From the NCBI GenBank assembly GCA_964574655.1, contig CAZNOH010000001.1:73852-137851 (forward strand): a DNA stretch of 64,000 bases, written 5' to 3'. Shown piece after piece: positions 6,821 to 18,459 of the stretch (the stretch's first letter is position 1; every line of letters begins with the position of its first letter). Both the position numbers and the translations under genes were made by a program. Under the pieces are notes generated by a model. It searched no databases, was not told where the DNA came from, and saw nothing but the letters and a program-made list of their open reading frames with translations. Source of the DNA: an uncultured Candidatus Saccharibacteria bacterium (lineage in GTDB: Bacteria; Patescibacteriota; JABMPQ01; JAQVVF01).

Positions 6821-7123
6821 CTAATTATTGGTCAATGTAAGAATAAAGCTAGTATTTTTATTGGCTTTTAGAGAATGAATTACATTTTTTTCCAAATAAA
6901 TAAATACTCCTGGTAACATTTTTATTTCTTTTTCTTCAAGATTGAAAATACCATCTCCTTCAATAACATAAACAAATCCTTGTTTTGTTGATGTATGATT
7001 TGATATCTCTGTATCTTTTGCCATGCAAAATAAGGTAATATTTAATTTACTATTTTTTACAATATCCTTGCTTAAGATTCCTTTTTTTGGATATTCAATT
7101 AGATCAGTCAACTTTTCATTCAT
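6821..7123 (-). CDS. cupin-domain protein
   Basis: 100 aa; GFVYVIEGDG...PGVFIYLEKNVIHSLKA cupin pattern. Confidence 0.55.
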   Translation of the reverse strand: MNEKLTDLIEYPKKGILSKDIVKNSKLNITLFCMAKDTEISNHTSTKQGFVYVIEGDGIFNLEEKEIKMLPGVFIYLEKNVIHSLKANKNTSFILTLTNN

Positions 7124-7581
7124 AATTTTTCAAATTTAATTTTGTCATTAATATTAATCATATTATTATTGCAGAATCCAGCATTAACTTCAACAACAAA
7201 TTGAGCAGGTATTTTTGATGGAATTGATATTTCGCTGAGCGGAACAGTATTGTTGTGAATAGCGATTATTTCTTCAAGCTTGTTGACATAGATAATATCA
7301 AGAGGAATTAAAGTATTTTTCATCCAGAAAGATAATTGTTTTTCTGCATCAAAAATAAATAGCATGCCGGAATTTTCTGGCAATGATTTCCGCCACATTA
7401 ATCCTTGAGTTCTGTTTTGATCATTATTAGCAATTTCGATATTGATTGTTGTAATCAGGCTATTATCTCTTCTTAAAAATTGCAGCTCGCCATCTTTGAT
7501 AAAGGCTGGAGTGATTCTATTTGTAACTTCATTATTTGTCTTGAAATAAAAAATTATAAAAATACTTGCTATGAAAAACAA
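7120..7581 (-). CDS. DUF192-family protein (COG1430-like)
   Basis: 153 aa; TQGLMWRKSLPENSGMLFIF...FWMKNTLIPLDIIYV matches the conserved DUF192 core. Confidence 0.55.
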   Translation of the reverse strand: MFFIASIFIIFYFKTNNEVTNRITPAFIKDGELQFLRRDNSLITTINIEIANNDQNRTQGLMWRKSLPENSGMLFIFDAEKQLSFWMKNTLIPLDIIYVNKLEEIIAIHNNTVPLSEISIPSKIPAQFVVEVNAGFCNNNMININDKIKFEKL

Positions 7582-7639
7582 TGCTATTAAAGAAATAACT
7601 AGTTTTTTATATTTGTAGAGAATATGATTTTAAAATTTA

Positions 7640-7900
7640 TTATATTAAGGCTGTGATGGCTGTAGCAATTCCTAAAATAATACCTGGAACATTGGCAATT
7701 ATAATAGGCCAGTCTTTTTTTGTTTTGAATGTACCATATGATGTCCAGGCAATACAGTTTATTGTTGTTATGATTGGCAGAACTATTGATCCTGTTTGAC
7801 CAGAGATATTTAATCTAATTTGATCTATATACGAAAAATACATGGTAACAGCCATTAAAGAAGCAAACCATCCAATTTTATTTACAATATTTTCGTTCAT
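7640..7900 (-). CDS. SemiSWEET-like small sugar transporter (3-TM PQ-loop/MtN3 family)
   Basis: 86 aa, three TM helices; size and topology of bacterial SemiSWEETs. Confidence 0.45.
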   Translation of the reverse strand: MNENIVNKIGWFASLMAVTMYFSYIDQIRLNISGQTGSIVLPIITTINCIAWTSYGTFKTKKDWPIIIANVPGIILGIATAITALI

Positions 7901-7940
7901 AATTATAAAAAATATTAATTAAGTTTTGTTTTGGAATTTC

Positions 7941-8043
7941 GCATAACGGAAGCATATATCTGATGTCCGTCGAAGCGTTAGCGTAGGCGGATATGGGTGA
8001 AGTTCACCTCGTGCGGGCATAACCAGAGATACGTTGTTGTGCG
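7941..8043. repeat. attC-like imperfect palindrome E1 (GCATAAC...GTTGTGC)
   Basis: Outer boxes fit RYYYAAC/GTTRRRY with one deviation; inner inverted repeats catatatctga/ccagagatac; abuts the stop of ORF 8047..8424. Confidence 0.45.
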
Positions 8044-8046
8044 ATG

Positions 8047-8424
8047 TTAAATAATTTTTTTCAAATTTCCCAAAATACTTTCCGTAAATGGTTTACTTAA
8101 TTCACCGTTAGTCATCCATTCAAAATATTCCATTTCAGTTTTATTATCGTCTAATTTGCGATAAGTATATTTTACAAAATAATTTTCATCTAAATCCGAC
8201 AAAATAAATACCTCATTTTTTTTAATGTCTACGACTTTATATTCATCCCAATTATCACTTTCTCCGCGATTTTTATATCTCGTATTTATTTTTGGAGGAT
8301 ATTCATCAGCAACCTCTACTGAAATGGAAGGAATCCATAAGTGAGTATTTTGGGGATTTGTTGTAAACTCAAATACTTTATCAATCGGTTTATCTATGAC
8401 AACTGTAATTTTGTTTTCTCTCAT
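8047..8424 (-). CDS. SRPBCC (Bet v1/polyketide-cyclase-like) ligand-binding domain protein
   Basis: 125 aa; size and hydrophobic pattern of the SRPBCC/START superfamily; cassette-like context. Confidence 0.45.
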   Translation of the reverse strand: MRENKITVVIDKPIDKVFEFTTNPQNTHLWIPSISVEVADEYPPKINTRYKNRGESDNWDEYKVVDIKKNEVFILSDLDENYFVKYTYRKLDDNKTEMEYFEWMTNGELSKPFTESILGNLKKII

Positions 8425-8447
8425 ATTTGAAAAAATTATTTAATTTC

Positions 8448-8515
8448 GTACAACGGTCGCGAATAAAACGCAGTTGCTTTACGCAGTAAACAATTGCGGT
8501 TATTCGCTGTTGTGC
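8448..8515. repeat. attC-like imperfect palindrome E2 (GTACAAC...GTTGTGC)
   Basis: 68 bp; inner 8-bp inverted repeats gcgaataa/ttattcgc; outer boxes fit RYYYAAC/GTTRRRY with one mismatch. Confidence 0.5.
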
Positions 8516-8539
8516 GATCGTACAAAACTTTGCATCAAT

Positions 8540-9070
8540 TTATTCAATTTCAAATTTGGTTATATTTATAATTTTTTCAACTATCTGATCTTCGGAATAT
8601 GATTCCGGTAGTATAGTTTCTAATTCATGACCTGATTTATGTGCTGCAGGAAACCACTGCCTTATTTCGTCCTGACCATACTCAAAATTTGCTTCTTTTT
8701 TTTGATGCCTCTTTACTGTTTCTTCAAAACTCACATCAAAATAAAAAATATAACTTTTACCACTATGTACTGTGATCAATCTTTCGATAATTGATTGATA
8801 GGACTTTACTGAAAGAATGCCCTCTAAAATAACATTATACCCAGCTTGTAGGGCAATAGCTGTATTATGTTCAATCATTTTATGGATAACATTAGCGTTT
8901 GATTTACTTCCACCTCCAGCGGGTTTAAAAATGAATCGATAATAATCTTGGTGAATGAGTGCGGTTTTGCTTTTTGCTTTTTTAAATAAATTTTTAGCAA
9001 CAGTTGTTTTTCCTGCAGCAGATGGACCACGTAAAATTATAAATATATTTTTAGATAACTTATTATTCAT
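8540..9070 (-). CDS. P-loop NTPase/kinase (AAA_33/zeta-toxin-like fold)
   Basis: Walker A ILRGPSAAGKTT; start refined to MNNKLSK so the CDS does not overlap element E3. Confidence 0.55.
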   Translation of the reverse strand: MNNKLSKNIFIILRGPSAAGKTTVAKNLFKKAKSKTALIHQDYYRFIFKPAGGGSKSNANVIHKMIEHNTAIALQAGYNVILEGILSVKSYQSIIERLITVHSGKSYIFYFDVSFEETVKRHQKKEANFEYGQDEIRQWFPAAHKSGHELETILPESYSEDQIVEKIINITKFEIE

Positions 9071-9093
9071 ATTTTTAGCAAAGTTTTGTATGT

Positions 9094-9190
9094 TGCACAA
9101 CGTATCCGAATATCGGAAGTTGTCGAAGCGTAGCGAAGGCAATTTGCGAAAATTGCGAGCTGAGCAATTTTCCCGATATTCGGTGTTAGG
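9094..9190. repeat. attC-like imperfect palindrome E3 (GCACAAC...GTTAGGC)
   Basis: 97 bp; perfect 11-bp inner inverted repeats ccgaatatcgg/ccgatattcgg; outer boxes RYYYAAC-like and GTTRRRY (GTTAGGC). Confidence 0.55.
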
Positions 9191-9266
9191 CGAGGGTTCT
9201 TTTGCTCTACCTTAATGTAATTATATCAGATAAAAGGGCAAAAGAAAGCGCAGCGACCCCTTGAGT
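9191..9266. repeat. conserved ~80-bp cassette leader, copy 1
   Basis: Near-identical to 10009-10085 (GAGGGTTC.TTTG.CT...AAAGCG.AGCG.CCCCTTG); internal inverted repeat cttttgc/gcaaaag. Confidence 0.5.
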
Positions 9267-9286
9267 TTCGCTTTTAAGCAATAATT

Positions 9287-9874
9287 TTATTTCGTTTTTC
9301 CTGCTAATTTCATTTTCTCGTTATAATGTGCTTCAACTTCTTTTTTTATTTCAGGCCACCTCATAATCCAATTAAGCCCATCACCAGCTGATTTTATTTC
9401 CTGGCTTTCTAAAATTTCTATACGCATGCAAAATCCAGCCTTATTTTTTTCAAGATACAAAAATTGTTTTTGCTCATCTGGCAGATTAAGCAAAAATTCA
9501 TCAGAAAAGTTTGGCCATGAATATTGCCCATCGCGAATCGGACGCAACTCTGTTCCGTTTGGCGCCTGGATATATGGCCTGCTGTGTATATTAAACCTGT
9601 ATATGCCGGATTGCCAATCTGACGTGTCAACTTCAAACCATCCTGGAAAATTTTTGCTTTCTGTCAGATTAACAGCTTCAATTCCAGAAATACGATGGCC
9701 TGGTTTATTTTTTTCAGATTCTTCTTTTACTCGCTCCTGTAATACACGCTGGTCATTGTTATCTATCGGGCCATCGGGGTTTGGTCCGATCCAAAGCTGG
9801 GCCTCGCCTAAACCCAATAATTCCTTATTGAGCAAAAACAAATTTTTGTCTTGGATTTTGATGAAGTTTTCCAT
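9287..9874 (-). CDS. hypothetical protein (cassette ORF)
   Basis: 195 aa; no recognisable domain; flanked by a perfect 23-bp inverted repeat (9267-9289 and 9881-9903). Confidence 0.5.
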   Translation of the reverse strand: MENFIKIQDKNLFLLNKELLGLGEAQLWIGPNPDGPIDNNDQRVLQERVKEESEKNKPGHRISGIEAVNLTESKNFPGWFEVDTSDWQSGIYRFNIHSRPYIQAPNGTELRPIRDGQYSWPNFSDEFLLNLPDEQKQFLYLEKNKAGFCMRIEILESQEIKSAGDGLNWIMRWPEIKKEVEAHYNEKMKLAGKTK

Positions 9875-9908
9875 AGATTTAAAAATTATTGCTTAAAAGC
9901 GAAATTTC

Positions 9909-10008
9909 GCCTAACGTCTGCCGATATGCGACGTTGTTACGACCGCAGGGAGTAACAATGTAGGTGAAGGCCGAGCCGAGGCCTGAACCGCATATCGTGC
10001 TGTTAGGC
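9909..10008. repeat. attC-like imperfect palindrome E4 (GCCTAAC...GTTAGGC)
   Basis: 100 bp; textbook outer boxes RYYYAAC and GTTRRRY; perfect 9-bp inner inverted repeats cgatatgcg/cgcatatcg; further internal palindromes gttgttac/gtaacaa and ggccgagccgaggcc. Confidence 0.6.
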
Positions 10009-10085
10009 GAGGGTTCATTTTGGCTTCCTTATTATAGTTTATCAAGAAAATGCCAAAATGAAAGCGTAGCGTCCCCTTGCGTTTA
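10009..10085. repeat. conserved ~80-bp cassette leader, copy 2
   Basis: Homologous to 9191-9266; internal inverted repeat cattttggc/gccaaaatg shows compensatory changes relative to copy 1. Confidence 0.5.
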
Positions 10086-10121
10086 TTTTTTCAAATTGCT
10101 TTTCACACCAGCTTTCGCTAC

Positions 10122-10151
10122 TTGACAGTTTGCCCGCCCTCGTGGTAATGT
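10122..10151 (+). promoter_or_regulatory. sigma70-like promoter TTGACA-18-TAATGT for the GC-rich ORF
   Basis: Canonical hexamers immediately upstream of SD aaggagg and the ATG at 10214. Confidence 0.45.
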
Positions 10152-10213
10152 GCAATGTCCTTTGGACCGTGCCTCACAAGGGGCGCGAAACCGCACTTTT
10201 AAGGAGGTGCAGG

Positions 10214-10447
10214 ATGGTCAAGAACGAGACCAAGATCAAGGTGTTCGAGGTGGGGAACGGCGACGACGAGTGTGTGAAGCGAAGCCGGAGCGTGGGCGAC
10301 GTGCTCGAGGAGCGCGTCAACGCGTGGCTCAGCGGACAGAGCATCAAGGTTCTGCAGGTCGTTCAGAGCACGAACACGTCGCCCGGGATGGCGAGCTCGA
10401 CCTACTTCAGCGTCACCCTCACGATCGTCTACGAGACGACTCGCTGA
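10214..10447 (+). CDS. small GC-rich xenologous protein (77 aa), possibly dodecin-like
   Basis: About 60% GC against a ~33% background; strong SD aaggagg 6 nt upstream; beta-alpha-beta-beta pattern loosely resembling dodecin flavin-binding proteins (weak); flanked by a 13-bp inverted repeat agtttgcccgccc/gggcgggcaaact. Confidence 0.5.
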   Translation: MVKNETKIKVFEVGNGDDECVKRSRSVGDVLEERVNAWLSGQSIKVLQVVQSTNTSPGMASSTYFSVTLTIVYETTR

Positions 10448-10464
10448 CGAACATCAAACCGCGC

Positions 10465-10509
10465 GCCCGTCCGTGTCCACTGACCAAGCGTTGGTGGGCA
10501 CGGGCGGGC
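10465..10509 (+). terminator. GC-rich hairpin downstream of GC-ORF1 (gcccgtccgtgtccac...gtgggcacgggcgggc)
   Basis: 16-bp imperfect stem followed by a T-rich tract about 30 nt downstream. Confidence 0.4.
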
Positions 10510-10585
10510 AAACTTCATTCACTCTACCGAGTGCTTTTTTATTTTACAAAACTTTCACGAAAAGCAATTTGAAAAAATAAATGTC

Positions 10586-10716
10586 GCTTAACGTTAAGAA
10601 TATCTGAAGTTCATTGTAGCATAGCGGAAATGAATTTGGGTCGAGAAAATTTCTTTTTCATTAATGTAAGGAATATAAAAGTGAGAAATTTTTGAGCCAG
10701 ATATTCTTTGTTATCG
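10586..10716. repeat. attC-like imperfect palindrome E5 (GCTTAAC...GTTATCG)
   Basis: 131 bp; perfect 11-bp inner inverted repeats aagaatatctg/cagatattctt; RYYYAAC outer box; reverse strand reads ...GTTAAGC (a GTTRRRY fit). Confidence 0.5.
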
Positions 10717-10734
10717 GATGTTTTACTCACGGTT

Positions 10735-11166
10735 TTATTGGAATAATTCCCTAATTTCATCCACATAAGGTTTTAGTTCATCAAACGACAAGTCCTGTTT
10801 AGTTTTGGGATCCCTATGAAAAAGATGATATTCAGGAAGCCTACTTTTATCACCATCCGTGCGAGGCATTACGTGAAAATGGAAATGTTCGACCATCTGT
10901 CCTGCATATTGACCTTCATTGAAACCATAATTAAAACCAGTTGGCTTCAAATATTCTTCATATTTTTTAGAAACCATTTGAACTGTAGTAATGAGGTCAA
11001 TCAATTCATCTTTGGTTAGTTCGCGAATATTTGTCACATGTCGTTTTGGCACCACAATACATTGTCCTTTATTTGCAGGACGAAAATTATGAATAACACG
11101 AACATTTTCATTTTCATACAATGATTGCGCTTCGATTATTTTTGGATCACAAAACGGACAGGTCAT
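10735..11166 (-). CDS. HIT-family (histidine triad) nucleotide hydrolase
   Basis: 143 aa; HFHFHVMPR histidine-triad motif; N-terminal CPFC. Confidence 0.8.
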   Translation of the reverse strand: MTCPFCDPKIIEAQSLYENENVRVIHNFRPANKGQCIVVPKRHVTNIRELTKDELIDLITTVQMVSKKYEEYLKPTGFNYGFNEGQYAGQMVEHFHFHVMPRTDGDKSRLPEYHLFHRDPKTKQDLSFDELKPYVDEIRELFQ

Positions 11167-11198
11167 ATTTTTAAAATTAAGTGAGTGAGCAAAATTTC

Positions 11199-11385
11199 CG
11201 ATAACGTTCCCGAGTATGCGAAGCCGCGCTATTGTTTTCAGTACAAACTTACGCTTTCAGATAATACTATTTTAGCACTTCAGACACTCGATTTCAAGAA
11301 GCGCGGTTTGGGAGAGGAAAATAGCGATACCTTTGAAAATATAAAAATTATCGCTATTTTCTGAACCGCATACTCGGTGTTATCG
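11199..11385. repeat. attC-like long imperfect palindrome E6 (CGATAAC...GTTATCG)
   Basis: 187 bp; perfect 10-bp inner inverted repeats cgagtatgcg/cgcatactcg; nested inverted repeats aagccgcgc/gcgcggttt and aaatagcgata/tatcgctattt. Confidence 0.45.
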
Positions 11386-11570
11386 GATGTAAATTATTTT
11401 CATTTTTCGATTTTTTTCAACTATTCAAGGGCGAATTTTGATTCCGTTTGGCGGGGGCGCAAGAGGGGAATAAAAGGGGTGAATTGCGCCCCCGCCAATC
11501 ACTTCGTTTAAAATGAAGAAGGCCAGCGGTAATTTTCGATTGCTCGAATTTCCCGCTGGCTTAGCCCTCC

Positions 11571-12035
11571 CTATTTCTCGCAAACACCGACGAGTACGCA
11601 GTGAGGACCGCAACGATCATCGTCGGCGTATTGCTTGAGGCCGCGCGTAGGACCTCCACTGATAAAGAAGCTGCTCCTCGAACCCCCAATGAAGGCCATA
11701 TACGGGGCATCATTCAGTCCCAAATTATGGTCTTTTGCAGGGGGCAAGAGAGCTTCTGCGGGGTCGCAGAGACGCACGCCAACCTCACGAAAAGCGGCTT
11801 CCACGTCCGCACGGTAGACGATCCCGTCTGCACGCTTGAACAGCTTGCCGGAGACGATGCAGAACATCACCGTCTCGACACCCTGCCGCTCGGTCGGGAA
11901 GTTGTTGTCGGTGATGTCCCTGTCTACGCCATGGTATTGACCCTCACTGGCGAGTTGGGCGATGATGTGCGAGTTCCTGTTGAGCTGGAGCACGATCTTG
12001 TTGTCCGCGATTGCTCTTTTGAGTGTTTGCGACAT
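11571..12035 (-). CDS. GC-rich xenologous hypothetical protein (154 aa)
   Basis: About 58% GC with strong GC3 bias at the 5' end; SD aaaggagag 5 nt upstream of the ATG; two GC-rich hairpins downstream (tggcgggggcgca...tgcgcccccgcca; gccagcgg...ccgctggc); no confident family. Confidence 0.5.
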   Translation of the reverse strand: MSQTLKRAIADNKIVLQLNRNSHIIAQLASEGQYHGVDRDITDNNFPTERQGVETVMFCIVSGKLFKRADGIVYRADVEAAFREVGVRLCDPAEALLPPAKDHNLGLNDAPYMAFIGGSRSSFFISGGPTRGLKQYADDDRCGPHCVLVGVCEK

Positions 12036-12104
12036 TTTCACTCTCCTTTTGTGTTTGTCTTTCCCCGCACCCGTCGCGGAGTTAGACAATTTAATCTATC
12101 ATGT

Positions 12105-12134
12105 ATATAATACTTGTAAATACTATATGTCAGT
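12105..12134 (-). promoter_or_regulatory. candidate promoter (CTGACA-18-TTATAT) reading into the cassette array
   Basis: On the minus strand, about 70 nt upstream of the GC-ORF2 start; a Pc-like position. Confidence 0.3.
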
Positions 12135-12265
12135 AAATAATGATAAAATATGCTAAAATAAAGCAAAATAATGAGATAAATTACAAAATGTAAGTAATTA
12201 TTGACACAATTTAGCTGTTGTGATAGGATAGAAAAATCTATCTTGGATATTTAGCCACCAAACCT

Positions 12266-13051
12266 ATGGAAAACTTAATCAAAGATCTCGGACTTGATGA
12301 AAACGAGGCGAATGTATATCAAGCCCTTTTGGAACTTGGGCCGTCTACTGTTAGCCAAATAACAAGAAAAGCGGGAATTACCCGAACATTCGGCTATCAA
12401 ATTTTAGAAAAGTTAAGTGTGTATGGATTTGTCAATCGTGTATCGGGGGAGGGTGCAAAAATTCGTTTTGTAGCAGAACACCCGAGACGCTTAGTGCAGT
12501 TTATCCAAAACAGAAAAAATCAATGGGAAAGACGTCTTAAAGAAGCAGAAGACAGATTACCTGATTTAGTATCTTTGTATAAACTTGCCGATAAACCTAC
12601 TATTAAATATCTGGAAGGCATAGAAGGAGTAAAGTCAATTTTCATCCAAACACTTGAGTCAAAAGAGGAAATTTTTTCTATTTTGGACATCGAGGGTTGG
12701 GATATTCCTGAATTTCAAAGTTGGGGTAGAGAATATAACCGAGAAAGAAGTGCGCGGAAAGTAAAAGAAAGAATACTTATGTATGACACGCCACAAGGTA
12801 GGGAGTGGATGGATGACTATCGGGGTTCGTTCAAATATACAAACTGTCGTTGGATAAAGCCCGAAGATTTACCAGGAATTAGAGAATTCGGTGGCGAAAT
12901 AAATGTTTATGAAAATAAAGTTGTAATGGCCTTGCTGAAAAAGCCAAACATAATGGGGGTGGTGATTGAAAGCCAAGCATTGTCAAATATTTTAAAAGGT
13001 TTGTTTGAGTTGGCGTGGAAGCAAGGTATTGAAGTCAAAAGAAAAAAATAA
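12266..13051 (+). CDS. TrmB-family transcriptional regulator
   Basis: 261 aa; N-terminal wHTH LGLDENEANVYQALLELGPSTVSQITRKAGITRTFGYQILEKL typical of TrmB; promoter TTGACA-17-TAGGAT at about 12203. Confidence 0.65.
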   Translation: MENLIKDLGLDENEANVYQALLELGPSTVSQITRKAGITRTFGYQILEKLSVYGFVNRVSGEGAKIRFVAEHPRRLVQFIQNRKNQWERRLKEAEDRLPDLVSLYKLADKPTIKYLEGIEGVKSIFIQTLESKEEIFSILDIEGWDIPEFQSWGREYNRERSARKVKERILMYDTPQGREWMDDYRGSFKYTNCRWIKPEDLPGIREFGGEINVYENKVVMALLKKPNIMGVVIESQALSNILKGLFELAWKQGIEVKRKK

Positions 13052-13057
13052 AAAATC

Positions 13058-13083
13058 GTCCCGCCCGAGTATACGGGCGGGAC
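13058..13083 (+). terminator. GC-rich hairpin gtcccgcccg-agtata-cgggcgggac
   Basis: Perfect 10-bp stem after the trmB-like stop; no T-run, so it could be a recombination or regulatory site instead. Confidence 0.35.
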
Positions 13084-13260
13084 ATCATATTTCCCCTAAT
13101 CAAATAATTATCAAAATTCGCCCCTCAATTATCAAAAAAATCGAAAAATGAAAATAATTTATTTCCGATAACTCGTTTATATCTATAATGTTTACAAATA
13201 GTATGCTAAATTTTGTATAATTGTGCTATATTATTGTTGTAAAAAGTAATTTTTTATTTA

Positions 13261-14072
13261 TGCCTAGTTTAATAGAAATTATGAAGCGGGACATGGAAAT
13301 CCTAAATTACAGCCAAAAGACAATTGATGCTTATCAACGAAATATTGCGGAATTGTATAGATTTGTAAAAAAGCCATTGAGGAATTTAGATGAGAATTCG
13401 ATAAAGGATTTTTTGAGCCAGAAACAGAAAAAAGGTTTATCAAGTCAGTCCATTGCTTTGGCGGTGAATGCGATTAATTTTCTTTATACTCGCATATACA
13501 AGGATCCTGATTATAAAAAAATGCGACATCCTAAGCGTTCTAAACGTTTGCCAGTGGTATTGTTGAAATCAGAGATTGAAAGAATTATTGAGCAGACAAA
13601 TAATAGAAAACATAAATTAATTATTGCATTGGCGTATGCTGGTGGTTTGCGTGTTAGTGAGGTTGTCAGTCTCAAGGTTCAAGATATTGATATAGATGCT
13701 TTGACATTGATAGTTCGACAGGGGAAAGGAAAAAAGGATAGATTAACAGTGCTTTCTAAAAGAATTATATCAGATTTGAGTGAAATGATAAATGGCAAGC
13801 ATAGTTTTGATTATGTTTTTGAAAGTGAACGAGGTGGCAAGTTGACTGTAACAACAGTTCAAAAAGTATTTAGCAAATGTTTAGAAAAATCAGGGGTTAA
13901 AAAACCTGTGACTTTTCATTCTTTGCGCCATAGTTTTGCAACGCACTTGTTAGAGAATGGCACTGATATTCGCTATATTCAAGAATTGCTAGGACATCAA
14001 AATATTCGAACAACGCAAATTTATACGCAAGTAACGAATCCGAGTATTAGGAAAATTGTAAGTCCGTTTTAG
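13261..14072 (+). CDS. tyrosine site-specific recombinase (XerC/XerD/IntI-like)
   Basis: C-terminal HSLRHSFATHLL...LLGHQNIRTTQIYTQV (R-H-R-Y catalytic region); RLPVVL and GKGKKDR boxes; N-terminal SAM-like core-binding domain resembling IntI/Xer; an alternative start at 13221 is possible. Confidence 0.85.
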
Positions 14073-14133
14073 AAAAGTAAAAAGTCAAAAGTAAAAAGGT
14101 AAAAGTTACAAGTAAAAATTAAAAAGTATTTTT

Positions 14134-17100
14134 ATGATAGGAAAGCCATCTGAAGAAATAAAAGAGCGGTTGGATATTGTGGATTTGATTTCAGAATATA
14201 TTCAACTAACACCTGCTGGTGTTAATAATTTTAAAGCAAGGTGTCCTTTTCATAATGAAAAAACGCCGTCTCTTTTTGTATCCAAAGATAAGCAGATTTT
14301 TAAATGTTTTGGATGTTTTCCCAAGGGTGCAATCATTAGAACGGTAGAAGGCAACAAGGCAATTGATCGATTGAAAATTGGTGATTTAGTCTTGACGCAT
14401 AAAAGTCGATATAAGCCGGTAATTAAGTTATTTAAAAGAGATTATAAGGGACTTATGGTTGATGTTATAACGCGAAAATTGAATGAAGTTGTTTCTCTGA
14501 CTTCTGATCATAAAGTTTTTGTAATAAAAACAATAAATTGTAAACAAAAAAATAGAGAATCAAGGATTTGCCAACTACGATGTACGCAGAATTGTCCGAC
14601 TAAATATTTTAAGGATTATAAAATTAAAAAAATATTAGCAGGAGAATTGAAGCAGAATGATTATTTGCTTTATCCAATCGATGAAAAAGTTGTTGATATA
14701 AAAAAAATAAATTTAAAAAAATATTTGACTAAGAAAAAACCAATTCATGGCAAGGAGATTAGAAAATTGCCTGATTACTTAACTGTTAATTCTGATTTAT
14801 TAAAGTTATTAGGCTATTGGATTGCTGAGGGCAGTAGTCATCGAGCATATATCAGATTTAGTCTTGGCAATCATGAAGAAATTTTTGCTAATGATATTGT
14901 AAAATTGCTTTTTAAAGTTTTTAAATTAAAAGCAAGTATTTATCGAAGAAAAAATACTGAAAAAACAGGCTTAGAGATAACTTGTTGCAATTCTAATTTG
15001 GCGAATATTTTTGAAAATTTGTGTGGAAAGGGTGCTTTGAATAAACATATACCATTTGAATTTGTGAATTTACTTGCTAGAAAACAAAGAATTTTGTTAG
15101 AGGCGATTCATCGAGGGGATGGTTATCAAGGGTTTGTGAATGATAGTAAAAGAAAATATAGAGCAATTACGGTAATTTCTAGAACTTTGACAGATCAGAT
15201 GAAAGAGATTTTGTTGCGTTTAAATTTAATGCCAACTTTGTTTATTGCTGATGAAAAAGTTGACAAGAAAGGGGTTCGTCATAAAAAATCTTACACTCTA
15301 AGCTGGCAGGAAAATATTTTAGGGCATTATGCTGATTTTTATAGATTTGATAAAATTAAATATTGGATTTTGCCAATAAGAAAAATTGTGAAAAGAAAAT
15401 TTTCTGGAACTGTTTATAATTTGATGGTAAAAGATGATCATTCTTATACAACAACAAATTTTACAGTTGGTAATTGTGGAGAGGGCGGCGATGTTTTTTC
15501 TTTTGTGATGAAAATGGAAGGATTGGAATTTGTTGATGCATTAAGAATTTTGGCGGTTAAAGCTGGCGTGGAATTGAAACGCGAACAGCCAGAATTTTAT
15601 TCTAAGCGAGCAAGAGTTTTAGAAATTTTAAAATTATCAGCGGAATATTATAATTTAGCATTATTAAAAAGTAAAAGCGGACAAATTGCTAGGGATTATA
15701 TTGCGACAAGGAAATTAAAATCAGAAACTGTTAGTCAATTTAAATTAGGATTTTCACCTGATGATTGGGAAATGCTGTCTAGGTTTTTAAAGTCTCGTGG
15801 ATTCAGAGATGATGAAATTTTAGCAAGTGGAATGGTTGTGCCAAAAGATTATGGCAGATATTATGATCGATTTAGATTTAGATTAATGTTTCCGATTTGG
15901 GATGGACAGAATAATGTGGTTGGATTTACGGCCAGACAATTGAGAGAAGAAAAAAATATGGGCAAGTATATTAATACTTCGCAAAGCTTGGTTTATGATA
16001 AGAGCCGAGTGATTTATGGATTGAATTTTGCTAAGTCAGATATAAGAAGAGAGGATAGGGTGGTAATAGTTGAGGGCAATATGGATGTGATTGCATCGCA
16101 TCAGGCAGGAGTTAAAAATGTTGTGGCATCTTCTGGGACGGCTTTGACTTCAATGCAAATTGATTTGATAAAAAGGTATACAAATAATGTTGTTTTTTCT
16201 TTTGATATGGATTTGGCTGGAAATATGGCAACACAGAGAGGAATTGATTTGGCATTGGAATCAGGATTGAATATTAAAGTGGCAGTACCTAAAAAAAACA
16301 ATGACGTGAAAGATCCTGATGATATTATAAAAACAGAAGGCGTTAAGGCATGGAAAGATGTAATTAATTCGGCAAAATCAATTATGGATTATTATTTTGA
16401 AAGCAATGCAGAAAAATTAAATTTAACTGAAGTTTTAGATAAAAAAATAATGGCAAAGTTTTTATTGCCAAAGATTAAAAAAATTCCGGACAAGGTTGAG
16501 CAGGCGCATTATTTGCAAAAATTGGCAGGATTGCTTTTGGTTGGTGAGGATATTTTGCGAGAAGCAATGGGAAAAACACGAGTTTTACATGGCTATGGAA
16601 GATCGGCAAGTGCAAAAGCATCCGCCTTCGCTCCAACTGTGGTTGGAGCTTCCACCTACGCAAATGCTTCGGCGGACAAGCCGGTGGACAAAGAAAGCGA
16701 AACTGAATTGTTGCAGGAGCGTCTTTTTGGCTTGATAATGTCTGATTTTGAGAACTTTAAAAAGCTAGAAAGCTTTGATTTAGGGTTATTTAATGATCAA
16801 ATAAGTTCACTTTACAAAAGAATAAAAGAATATTATAATGATAACAAATCATTTGAGTTCAACGTCTTTAGTTCTGAATTAGAAAAGGATTCAGTTGTTT
16901 TGTCTTTATTTGCCAAGGAGCTAGTTTTGGGGATTGAAAAGGAGCAAAGTCAGCGAGAGAAAGGTGAAATTTTTGAAATCAAAAAAGAGGTAGATAGATG
17001 CCTGAACAGATTGACAGAAAATGATTTAAAGAAAAGATTAATGGATATTGAGGCGCAAATGCGCAATGCAGAGGTCAGCAAAAATGTAGAGAAGGTTACT

Positions 17101-17163
17101 GATTTGAGCAAGCAGTTTAATGTTTTGTCACAAAAGTTAGATAAAGTTAACGAGATTATCTAA
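14134..17163 (+). CDS. dnaG: DNA primase DnaG interrupted by an intein
   Basis: CPFHNEKTPSLF...FKCFG | intein | CGEGGDVFSFVM reconstitutes the zinc-binding CHC2 motif; TOPRIM VVIVEGNMDVIASHQAG; 1009 aa including a 387-aa intein. Confidence 0.9.
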   Translation: MIGKPSEEIKERLDIVDLISEYIQLTPAGVNNFKARCPFHNEKTPSLFVSKDKQIFKCFGCFPKGAIIRTVEGNKAIDRLKIGDLVLTHKSRYKPVIKLFKRDYKGLMVDVITRKLNEVVSLTSDHKVFVIKTINCKQKNRESRICQLRCTQNCPTKYFKDYKIKKILAGELKQNDYLLYPIDEKVVDIKKINLKKYLTKKKPIHGKEIRKLPDYLTVNSDLLKLLGYWIAEGSSHRAYIRFSLGNHEEIFANDIVKLLFKVFKLKASIYRRKNTEKTGLEITCCNSNLANIFENLCGKGALNKHIPFEFVNLLARKQRILLEAIHRGDGYQGFVNDSKRKYRAITVISRTLTDQMKEILLRLNLMPTLFIADEKVDKKGVRHKKSYTLSWQENILGHYADFYRFDKIKYWILPIRKIVKRKFSGTVYNLMVKDDHSYTTTNFTVGNCGEGGDVFSFVMKMEGLEFVDALRILAVKAGVELKREQPEFYSKRARVLEILKLSAEYYNLALLKSKSGQIARDYIATRKLKSETVSQFKLGFSPDDWEMLSRFLKSRGFRDDEILASGMVVPKDYGRYYDRFRFRLMFPIWDGQNNVVGFTARQLREEKNMGKYINTSQSLVYDKSRVIYGLNFAKSDIRREDRVVIVEGNMDVIASHQAGVKNVVASSGTALTSMQIDLIKRYTNNVVFSFDMDLAGNMATQRGIDLALESGLNIKVAVPKKNNDVKDPDDIIKTEGVKAWKDVINSAKSIMDYYFESNAEKLNLTEVLDKKIMAKFLLPKIKKIPDKVEQAHYLQKLAGLLLVGEDILREAMGKTRVLHGYGRSASAKASAFAPTVVGASTYANASADKPVDKESETELLQERLFGLIMSDFENFKKLESFDLGLFNDQISSLYKRIKEYYNDNKSFEFNVFSSELEKDSVVLSLFAKELVLGIEKEQSQREKGEIFEIKKEVDRCLNRLTENDLKKRLMDIEAQMRNAEVSKNVEKVTDLSKQFNVLSQKLDKVNEII
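14314..15474 (+). mobile_element. intein with LAGLIDADG homing endonuclease inside dnaG
   Basis: Starts with Cys (CFPKGAIIRT); block B TSDHKV; two LAGLIDADG motifs (LLGYWIAEGSS and LLEAIHRGDGYQG); ends ...NFTVGN followed by the Cys+1 of the extein. Confidence 0.8.
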
Positions 17164-17166
17164 AAT

Positions 17167-18459
17167 ATGGCAAAAAAGAAAAAGAAAAAAATTATTAAAA
17201 AAACTGTAAAGAAAATGGTCAATAAAGCTAATAAAAAAATTAAGAAATCTTTTGTTTCTAAAAAAACGAAAGGTTCAAAAGAATTTTATTGCCGTGTCTG
17301 CAGTAAATATCATATAAAAAATTCTAAAATAGGAAGATCCCATCTTAGAAAATTTGTTTTGAGAAAAAAAAGCCGTCCGCAAAGAATGTTCATAGAAAAA
17401 AAGGAAATCAAAAAAGAAGATATTGATTATTTAATTAGAAAAGGACGCGAGCAAGGCTTTGTAACTGAGTATGAAATAATTTATACTATTCCTTATCTTG
17501 AAGATAACATTGATGTTTTAGAAGATTTGATTGATGAATTTATCAGAAATGGCATTGAAGTCAAAGAGCCAGAAGAAAGATTGATAATGGAAGACAAGAA
17601 AGAAAAAGCTGGATCCAAAATTGATTTAAGCGCATTATCTTCTGATTCTATTCAGATGTATTTGAGAGAAATTGGCAAGGTGCCATTATTAAAAAATGTA
17701 GAGGAAGTTGATTTGGCAAAAAGAAAAGATGCTGGAGATCAAGAGGCTTTTAAAATGTTGGTTGAAGCTAACTTGAGATTGGTTGTTTCAATTGCTAAAA
17801 AATATACTGGCCGAAATTTAACTTTGCTTGACTTAATTCAAGAAGGAAATATGGGCTTGTTCAAGGCTGTTGAAAAATTTGATTATCGCAGAGGTTATAA
17901 ATTTTCAACTTATGCAACTTGGTGGATTAGACAAGCAATAACGAGAGCTTTGGCTGATCAATCTAGAACAATCAGAATTCCTGTGCATATGGTTGAAACG
18001 ATTAATAAATTTACTCAAGTTGAAAGAAGGTTGGTTCAGGAATTGGGACGCGAGCCATTGCCAGAGGAAATTGCCGCTGAAATGGGAATTGAGATTGACA
18101 AGGCTAGAAATATAATTAAAATAAATCAAGATACTGTTTCTCTTGATACTTCTGTCGGCGATGATGATGATGAAAGCACATTGTCGGATTTTATTCAGGA
18201 TGTAAAAAGCGTTTCTCCAGATCAAGCGGCAGCTTTGAGATTATTGAAAGATCATATCAAAGAAGCGATTCAATATTTAACTCCGAGAGAACAGAAAATT
18301 CTTGAGATGCGTTTTGGATTGGTTGATGGAGTTGGACATACTTTGGAAGAGGTTGGACGAGAATTCGGCGTGACGCGTGAAAGAATTAGGCAGATTGAAG
18401 CGAAAGCATTGGAAAAAATTCGGGCTCATGATCTTGTTAAGAAGCTCCGTGAGTATTAG
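17167..18459 (+). CDS. rpoD: RNA polymerase sigma factor RpoD (sigma-70)
   Basis: Region 2.4 [13 protein letters not shown]; region 4.2 [20 protein letters not shown]; Lys-rich N-terminal extension; immediately downstream of dnaG as in the classical dnaG-rpoD operon. Confidence 0.9.

Follow-up and report, generated by a model that had tools for sequence, protein, structure and literature searches.

Background

Can a tyrosine recombinase of the Xer type, without the insertion that distinguishes the integron integrases (IntI), run an array of gene cassettes? The question is raised by a locus in the genome of an uncultured Candidatus Saccharibacteria bacterium, a member of the Patescibacteria or candidate phyla radiation (CPR), where a recombinase gene (13260-14072, + strand) diverges from a series of cassettes that end in hairpins resembling the attC sites of integrons. 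We analysed 64 kb around it (positions 73,852 to 137,851 of contig CAZNOH010000001.1, assembly GCA_964574655.1), referred to below as the window, whose numbering we use throughout. An initial annotation of this DNA offered two explanations, either that the array is a CALIN, that is, an attC cluster with no IntI nearby, served in trans, or that a Xer-type enzyme has been co-opted. The evidence presented here favours the second: the enzyme has no IntI insertion, arrays recur beside its homologues, and the hairpins share arm bases with a dif-like site next to the gene. We consider it likely that the locus is an integron-like cassette platform run by an insertion-less Xer-family enzyme, the platform consisting of the recombinase gene, the dif-like site 90 nt upstream of it and a one-way cassette array.

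The I2 insertion of IntI is regarded as the innovation that enabled recombination of folded attC sites (Escudero et al. 2016 and 2020). IntegronFinder accordingly requires an IntI-specific profile, and the locus described here, an attC-like cluster with no IntI-type protein, falls under the definition of a CALIN, a label that would hide the linked Xer-type enzyme.

Results

Relationship of the recombinase to Xer and IntI

The recombinase is a Xer-family, XerA-like protein of 270 aa. Its open reading frame (ORF) and its end at 14072 are as first annotated, and the start codon, an ATG, lies at 13260, one nucleotide before the 13261 given earlier. Pfam assigns the protein to Phage_integrase (PF00589, 6e-44) with a SAM-like N-terminal domain (SAM_4), and the conserved tyrosine-recombinase motifs GLRVSE, GKGKKDR, HSLRH, LGH and IYTQ are present. 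The RLPVVL and GKGKKDR boxes pointed out in the initial annotation were found at aa 96 and aa 155-161 and HSLRH at aa 220; the stretch from KDR to HSLRH, estimated there at about 60 aa, measures 58 aa. The proposed absence of the IntI-specific domain is borne out by alignment with VchIntIA (2a3v), which falls into two blocks (query 9-193 on IntI4 10-198 and query 192-269 on IntI4 239-316) and leaves VchIntIA residues 199-238, about 40 aa, unmatched.

The enzyme resembles IntI as much as Xer, also as suggested. In comparisons with structures in the PDB, the single sequence scored 158 bits with VchIntIA, 156 with Pyrococcus abyssi XerA and 105 with XerD, and a profile of 22 homologues scored 193, 190 and 133 bits respectively. 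Among NCBIfam models it passed the XerA equivalog NF040815 (234.8 bits, cut-off 220), which all 22 aligned homologues also matched (E up to 1e-20), and failed IntI TIGR02249 (209 bits in two stretches, cut-off 265), NF011946 (146 bits, cut-off 435), XerC TIGR02224 (201.9 bits, cut-off 335) and XerD TIGR02225 (198.8 bits, cut-off 329.6). The last two scores, about 200 bits against cut-offs near 330, do not place it with the housekeeping XerC/D proteins, a placement that the initial annotation had named as evidence against a cassette role. The nearly equal family scores for IntI and XerA are consistent with a protein that branches close to the IntI root.

More than 7,800 homologues were found, at about 60% identity across Parcubacteria, Uhrbacteria, Magasanikbacteria and others, all of them from Patescibacteria-type metagenome-assembled genomes (MAGs). 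Nearly all are about 270 aa long; lengths run from 239 to 291 aa among the 120 matches listed, none of which reaches the ~320 aa of IntI. A subgroup of simple tyrosine recombinases named 'Cand', placed near Xer, restricted to candidate phyla and presumed to act in dimer resolution, has been described (Smyshlyaev, Barabas and Bateman, bioRxiv 10.1101/542381), and by that description the recombinase probably belongs to it. Our comparison of loci was gene-first, with 80 loci from GTDB genomes around homologues 46-63% identical, plus three more contexts; no second tyrosine recombinase was found in these loci of about 20 kb.

The core site and its surroundings

Upstream of the gene, at 13161-13188 on the + strand, lies a dif-like core site that would be the equivalent of attI. 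It reads ATTTCCGATAA, then C TCGTTTA, then TATCTATAA, or, divided differently, ATTTCCGATAAC-TCGTT-TATATCTATAA, with its AAC at 13170-13172, 90 nt before the ATG. Its parts are a left arm ATTTC-RYYY-AA, a central region that we take to be about 7 nt, and a right arm resembling (T)TATnYGAA. The site is conserved: in aligned upstream regions the element precedes 72 of the 83 homologous genes, the AAC standing most often 79 nt and otherwise mostly 100-120 nt from the start. The consensus is tATTTC-RNMT-AAC-TSGTT-tTTAT-nCGAA, i.e. ATTTCRNMTAA-CTSGTTW-TTATNCGAA, so that two inverted arms, ATTTCRNATAA and TTATNCGAA, enclose about 7 nt; an archaeal dif consists of two 11-bp inverted repeats and a 6-nt spacer. 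This site, missed by the initial annotation, is the single good match to the pattern in the window. Another candidate for attI, the GTTAGAC at 12083, was rejected as having the wrong polarity and no conserved context, the conserved site being that at 13161.

Two further features of the upstream regions were noted. Between the dif-like site and the ATG (13189-13259 in the window), most homologous loci keep TTGTATGTTATGCAAAC, which resembles the right arm TTATGCGAAC and may be a promoter, an extra, autoregulatory binding site for the recombinase, or both. In seven loci (L055, L063, L035, L042, L017, L078 and L086) the left arm, 100-150 nt before the gene, forms the 3' half of a short hairpin, for example GTTATTCAAAAT-loop-ATTTTGAATAAC, and contigs often end within such hairpins, which look like mini-cassettes without an ORF or stacked half-sites.

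Hairpins of the array

Six attC-like hairpins lie to the left of the core site, all of one polarity (+). Each has an RYYYAAC box (R'), about 4 nt, a stem of 8-11 bp, a variable loop, the return stem, a T and a GTTRRRY box (R''), and folds with an R stem (about 10 bp) that a 3-nt bulge on the 5' arm separates from an L stem. The first, attC 1 (7941-8042; R' GCATAAC, R'' GTTGTGC; 41 bits, E 1.8e-8), abuts the stop codon of the ORF at 8047-8424 and folds no better than shuffled sequence (z -1.5). It is followed by attC 2 (8448-8515; GTACAAC, GTTGTGC; 38.7 bits, E 8e-8), for which the + strand folds at -21.8 kcal/mol (z -5.4) and the - strand at -16.4; attC 3 (9095-9191; GCACAAC, GTTAGGC; 50.7 bits); and attC 4 (9909-10008; GCCTAAC, GTTAGGC; 51.9 bits, E 1.7e-11), with a fold of -30.7 kcal/mol (z -6.3). 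Nearer the recombinase are attC 5 (10586-10716; GCTTAAC, GTTATCG; z -4.3), which has a long variable loop and aligned only partially to the model described below, and attC 6 (11199-11385; CGATAAC, GTTATCG), which at 187 nt is the longest, was found by a stem scan and has the same R stem, 3-nt bulge and L stem as the others (-39 kcal/mol, z -6.0). In folding of single-stranded DNA, the + strand did better than the - strand at 5 of the 5 sites compared. With minus-strand ORFs in the cassettes and the recombinase on the + strand, the six hairpins of one polarity bear out the divergent arrangement first described.

A strict RYYYAAC/GTTRRRY pattern found only three sites; the looser architecture, AAC...GTT with a stem, was then sought by a stem scan through the whole window, which outside the array gave only a few AT-rich chance matches. 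A covariance model built from 34 hairpin sites, two of them from the window, matched the 64 kb, searched on both strands, only at 7933-8050, 8440-8523, 9087-9199 and 9901-10016, all on the + strand (E 2e-11 to 8e-8), and three of these four matches (attC 1, 2 and 4) lay outside the training set. The two hairpins with the longest loops, attC 5 and 6, were missed or partly aligned by the model and come from the stem scan and folding. An Rfam scan of 7000-14200 returned sub-threshold matches only, to Spot_42 (27.6 bits, gathering score 80) and to a microRNA family.

The link between hairpins and core site is in bases that the scan did not impose. In the consensus of 36 hairpins, ATTTC precedes R' in 26-34 of the 36 depending on position, GT directly follows AAC in 34-35, the L box reads TAT-S-Y-G, a further AW bulge is followed by GTT/AAC pairs, and GATGTA follows R''. 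The left arm of the dif-like site, ATTTC-RYYY-AAC, thus recurs in each hairpin together with a piece of the right arm, TATnYG, and a folded + strand would rebuild the left arm and the TATnYG of the right arm, interrupted by the bulge.

As side observations, an element of about 85 nt stands directly after R'' of attC 3 and attC 4 (9192-9285 and 10009-10095) in copies 83% identical and has no Rfam match, and a similar family of about 220 bp, an attC with its flank, is common to L004 (5083-5321), L009, L037, L069 and L077.

Complementarity of successive sites

In an integron array, the R'' box of one attC and the RYYY bases of the next R' box belong to the same cassette and are expected to be complementary, while a site's own R' comes from the neighbouring cassette. 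We scored complementarity at 4 of 4 variable bases, in the gene-first loci and in an independent, site-first sample of metagenome contigs holding the dif pattern. R'' was fully complementary to the R' of the next site in 30 of 69 gene-first and 12 of 21 metagenome pairs, rising to 25/38 (a count of the listed pairs) and 11/14 where the gap was below 1 kb. It matched its own R' in 6/71 and 1/21 cases and, in the gene-first loci, the previous R' in 2/34; random pairs reach 4/4 in 5.5% (gene-first) and about 11% (metagenome). In the window, with R boxes read by eye, four of six junctions are complementary at 4/4, including that from attC 6 to the dif-like site, and the other two at 3/4. The complementarity is what cassette exchange at AAC would leave, and we read it as the signature of such exchange.

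Two further points follow. The dif-like site is in many cases the next site, so that its left arm is supplied by the adjacent cassette; and since dif-like sites keep AAC-TSGTT and hairpins AAC-GTYY, the junction falls at the left boundary of the central region, the expected cleavage point on the + strand. The recombining strand was judged from the description of Nivina 2016, the junction position, the folding energies and the strand of the ORFs, of which the last three agree that the + strand is the recombining 'bottom' strand; asymmetry of arm length was dropped as an indicator because it proved unreliable.

Turnover of the array is seen between close relatives. In L001, whose recombinase is 83% identical, DUF192 on the left and xer-dnaG-rpoD on the right are kept, and nothing similar lies between them: the window has 5.8 kb between these shared flanks and L001 8.3 kb, including a HinfI-type restriction-modification set. 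By the R-box rule, positions 5572-9990 of L001, beside its dif-like site, form one cassette of about 4.3 kb (GTTATGT to ACATAAC, 4/4) whose cargo is a HinfI-type endonuclease with two methyltransferases, which would make a whole defence system one cassette. In 38 of 82 loci the contig stops upstream of the gene at less than 1 kb from it, compared with 5 of 82 on the downstream side, and coordinate arithmetic places the left end of a short-read contig of the same strain near attC 5.

Distribution among genomes

The initial annotation would have been contradicted by homologues without attC-like sites nearby; such sites do occur near them. In the gene-first loci, the 333 kb upstream of the gene hold 51 perfect-stem sites with the polarity seen in the window and the 640 kb downstream hold 2, while there is 1 of opposite polarity on each side. 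The covariance model (E up to 1e-3) gave 57 matches in 1.0 Mb from 82 Patescibacteria loci, of which 36 lay outside the training set and all 57 lay upstream on the strand of the gene. Of the 39 loci, from distant Patescibacteria, whose upstream sequence is longer than 2 kb, 28 had at least one match of this polarity. Of 60 cassettes between successive sites, 55 have their longest ORF on the strand opposite to that of the recombinase; the units have a median length of 1.0 kb.

In the site-first sample, 30 of 35 model matches were on the strand of the site and upstream of it. The sites themselves had a recombinase gene directly downstream in 21 cases, no gene in 44 and too little sequence in 15. 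Perfect-stem hairpins of the site's polarity number 18 in 87 kb upstream of sites with an adjacent gene or a short downstream sequence and 2 in 139 kb upstream of gene-less sites. These results indicate that the array follows the site, and that the gene is usually, not always, beside the site.

Gene-less sites that look genuine include L149 (8481-8502), L167 (5757-5778) and about 24 other metagenome loci, lying for example by gyrB (with an apparent intein) or prfB; by eye, an accessory gene on the minus strand usually stands just to their left, of restriction-modification, HicAB-like or OLD-like type. Single loci show other arrangements: two tandem dif-like sites 444 bp apart (L125, 3951-4416), three hairpins all on the opposite strand, which suggests an inverted segment (L146, 8748-14123), and two hairpins downstream of the dif-like site (L101, 2968-3659). 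Contigs with a CPR-type locus also occur in MAGs not labelled as CPR (L014, L035, L036, L043, L045, L062, L071 and L074, from MAGs labelled Actinomycetota, Deltaproteobacteria, Gammaproteobacteria, Nitrospirae, Bdellovibrionales and Pacearchaeota) and are probably mis-binned. The Pacearchaeota case is a hint that loci of this type could be among the archaeal CALINs on record. In viral contigs the dif pattern had three matches, about the chance level, with no adjacent homologue, and the attC-arm pattern none, which gives no sign of a phage reservoir.

Cargo of the cassettes

A family scan found no recombinase among the cassette ORFs. Those on the minus strand encode, from the left, a 125-aa protein with a weak SRPBCC/polyketide cyclase match (8047-8424), 77% identical in nucleotides to the dif-proximal cassette gene of L037 (8412-8787); a P-loop kinase like AAA_33/zeta toxin (8540-9142, likely start at an ATG near 9072); a 195-aa protein with no family match (9287-9874); and a HIT-family hydrolase (10735-11166, 2e-21). 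A high-GC ORF with no family match lies on the opposite strand at 10130-10447 (+; GC 0.45-0.47 against ~0.32), with, by eye, its own TTGACA/TAATGT promoter and hairpin. The cassettes contain two blocks (10100-10500 and 11450-12090) with GC of 0.45-0.47 per kb in a 32% GC genome, which suggests import of cassettes from high-GC donors.

By the R-box rule the dif-proximal cassette spans 11205-13171 and holds attC 6, a high-GC minus-strand ORF with no family match (11571-12089) and, on the + strand, a gene for a TrmB-family helix-turn-helix protein (12266-13051, 2.6e-15). The initial annotation had set this TrmB gene apart as a regulator between array and recombinase. The gene is confirmed and does lie there, inside the cassette and not as part of the platform: TrmB is absent beside the recombinase in L001, L004 and L006, and the rule holds at 4/4 between attC 6 and the dif-like site, so that on sequence grounds we class it as cassette cargo, not as a conserved regulator of the platform. 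Both TrmB and the ORF at 10130-10447 seem to be served by promoters of their own; in integrons, by comparison, cassettes without promoters are driven by Pc. The GC-rich hairpin with a 10-bp stem noted beside TrmB was found again at 13057-13084 (10-11 bp, terminator-like on both strands, T-run on the minus strand); a leftward promoter-like match at 13135-13107 precedes it on that strand.

The same cassette contains a lone GTTAGAC (12083-12089) that does not fit the R-box rule, and may be composite or rearranged. A 39-nt sequence starting at R'' of attC 6 (11379-11417, +) recurs inverted, at 95% identity, at 13133-13171, in a copy that stops at the left arm of the dif-like site. If gaps are allowed, inspection by eye lengthens the repeat to about 63 nt. 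We considered an inversion between attC 6 and the dif-like site as its origin; the R-box rule is satisfied without one.

Chromosomal flanks

The window is AT-rich (~32% GC). The left flank (7120-7900, minus strand) consists of DUF192 (7120-7581), syntenic in L001, and an MtN3/PQ-loop gene (7640-7900); an MtN3_slv gene also lies distal to the array of L004, where one model match (1653-1784) falls past it. The right flank (14134-18459, + strand) holds dnaG and rpoD, both syntenic with L001. The DnaG primase gene (14134-17163) contains an intein (Hint plus LAGLIDADG, about aa 56-443), while DnaG of the close relative L001 has 617 aa and no intein, the tblastx alignment skipping 14346-15459 of the window. 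No sign change in GC skew was found at the locus in the 64-kb window, thin evidence given that one side covers 12 kb; to the left and to the right the baseline skew is positive, unlike the pattern expected of a terminus, and to that extent argues against one.

Discussion

The model we propose builds on the conservation of the core site, the arms it shares with the hairpins, their polarity, the AAC crossover signature, the minus-strand ORF of each cassette and the turnover of cassettes. The core site has inverted arms, ATTTC-RYYY-AA and TTATnCGAA, and the cassettes end in imperfect hairpins of 68-187 nt. By analogy with integrons and with CTX-phage integration by XerCD, the + strand of each hairpin, the strand that codes for the recombinase, would fold and thereby restore both dif-like arms, broken by the 3-nt bulge. 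The recombinase would then cut between AA and C. Exchange between two hairpins would yield excised cassette circles, and exchange between a hairpin and the dif-like site would insert a cassette beside the recombinase gene; a single strand would be exchanged, and replication would resolve the product. On the same analogies, the adjoining enzyme would be the catalyst and single-stranded DNA the substrate.

Several observations weigh against this model. What points to the recombinase as catalyst is linkage alone, and in 44 of the 65 informative site-first matches, about 26 of which look genuine by inspection, no recombinase adjoins the site; likewise, the model had no match in 11 of the 39 loci whose upstream sequence exceeds 2 kb. 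The window is 64 kb of a 654-kb contig, and a canonical IntI or a second Xer could lie elsewhere. The unpaired bases of the hairpins are on the R'-L' (5') arm, opposite to canonical attC, which makes the analogy with integrons inexact and would also fit an enzyme without the I2 helix. Finally, the strong conservation of the family, about 60% identity across CPR classes, together with the earlier presumption that it is a Xer for dimer resolution, means that its main role may be housekeeping.

This last point is the core of the alternative that survives best, which we hold to be unlikely: the recombinase and its site would be the Xer system for chromosome dimer resolution, and the cassettes parasites piling up at dif in the manner of integrative mobile elements exploiting Xer (IMEX), which would make the platform a by-product instead of an adaptation of the integron kind. 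The constant length and very wide spread of the family speak for it besides its conservation, as do the classical dif architecture of the site and its occurrence without arrays and away from the gene. The XerS/difSL system is moreover a single Xer with a dif adjoining its gene, and XerCD can reportedly use a folded single-stranded hairpin of CTX phage. Yet the locus shows no switch of GC skew, the arrays are ordered and polar with one ORF per unit like integron cassettes, and hairpins are far denser by sites with an adjacent gene or short downstream sequence than by gene-less ones. This alternative differs from the platform model mainly in the primary role of the enzyme and not in the chemistry; one enzyme may serve both functions, or the cassettes may simply be parasites of dif.

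That the array is a CALIN served in trans by a canonical IntI elsewhere in the genome or the community, the adjoining recombinase being unrelated, is very improbable. IntegronFinder would score the locus in that way, CALINs are common, and the inspected 64 kb are only a part of the genome. Such an integrase, however, would not explain why the left arm, and some of the right arm, of the gene-adjacent site should recur in the hairpins, why the variable bases of the left arm come from the neighbouring cassette, or why arrays of one polarity accompany the gene in many distant CPR lineages, with a second tyrosine recombinase in none of the ~20-kb loci; and the bulges are on one arm of the hairpin, the extrahelical bases read by IntI on the other. 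Scarcely credible is the notion that the hairpins are structured intergenic repeats, such as terminators or repetitive extragenic palindromic (REP)-like elements, in a variable island with no link to recombination: they do lie just downstream of ORFs, where terminators sit, and attC 1 folds poorly, but terminators would have no reason to share AAC/GTT boxes and an ATTTC arm with the core site of a recombinase, would lack complementarity from R'' to the next R' across about 1 kb, and would not stand, 57 times out of 57, on the same side and strand of a single gene.

In a large and little-studied radiation, hairpin-cassette arrays thus appear tied to a dif-like site and to a Xer-like enzyme that never had the insertion. 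There is, in our estimate, an even chance of the broader proposition that this is a natural insertion-less integron of the Patescibacteria, with dif as the ancestral attI, and that single-strand cassette recombination predates the IntI domain or is independent of it. If the platform model is right, the locus would be a living model of how integrons may have arisen from Xer/dif, or else a convergent second solution. Capture of cassette genes would extend to the CPR, with accessory and defence genes in the arrays (the restriction-modification set of L001, the zeta-like kinase here); integron finders now in use would mistake a whole class of platforms for orphan CALINs; and the breaks in CPR metagenome assemblies just upstream of the recombinase gene would be accounted for.

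Comparison with known systems

A literature search found no description of a Xer-type integron, nor of integrons or Xer-linked cassette arrays in CPR bacteria. The nearest relatives by protein family are the Xer/dif systems with a single recombinase. The enzyme passes the XerA model, and the archaeal XerA/dif system has, as here, a core site of inverted arms of about 11 bp around a short spacer, which is 6 nt in archaeal dif against a central region of probably about 7 nt in the present site; PaXerA is reported to bind stem-loop att structures weakly. XerS/difSL and XerH/difH are further systems of this kind, and in the former the site adjoins the gene as it does here. The locus differs from all of these in the array of hairpin-ended cassettes that abuts the site and in the absence of a GC-skew switch. 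The 'Cand' subgroup is likewise near Xer and confined to candidate phyla, as the homologues found here are confined to Patescibacteria-type MAGs; it was listed with proteins presumed to act in dimer resolution, and no link to cassettes was given (bioRxiv 10.1101/542381).

Other systems move genes by means of Xer sites. Those sites differ from the hairpins described here in being 28-bp double-stranded XerC/XerD sites in the case of the pdif/dif modules of Acinetobacter plasmids, which also form no polar array beside a recombinase gene. The pdif sites occur in alternating orientation. The modules, accessory genes between Xer sites, are thought to be mobile by Xer recombination (PMC7399989). The folded, dif-mimicking hairpin of our model recalls IMEX, especially CTX-phage integration by XerCD. 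Elements of this type, such as the CTX phage, have no recombinase of their own, present a folded single-stranded hairpin that mimics dif, and undergo a single strand exchange at dif that replication resolves. The cassettes here also lack a recombinase, and their junctions with the dif-like site follow the R-box rule; they differ in being tandem single-gene units of about 1 kb, each with its own hairpin, instead of phage genomes, and in relying on one recombinase instead of the XerC/XerD pair.

In organisation the closest counterparts are integrons, such as class 1 integrons and that of Vibrio cholerae with VchIntIA. In both, the recombinase gene diverges from a one-way array of short cassettes, mostly with a single ORF, that end in imperfect hairpins with RYYYAAC and GTTRRRY boxes, an L-box stem and a variable loop; the crossover signature is at AAC, the units are circularly permuted, insertion is at (here, would be at) a double-stranded site by the recombinase gene, and the better-folding strand is the one complementary to the ORFs. 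IntI, however, has its specific insertion, held necessary for attC recombination, and the enzyme described here has none; the equivalent of attI is a symmetric dif-like core; and the hairpins have sequence-specific arms (ATTTC..AAC and TATnYG), with 3-nt and AW bulges on the R'-L' arm in place of the canonical extrahelical bases near L'' that are read by IntI.

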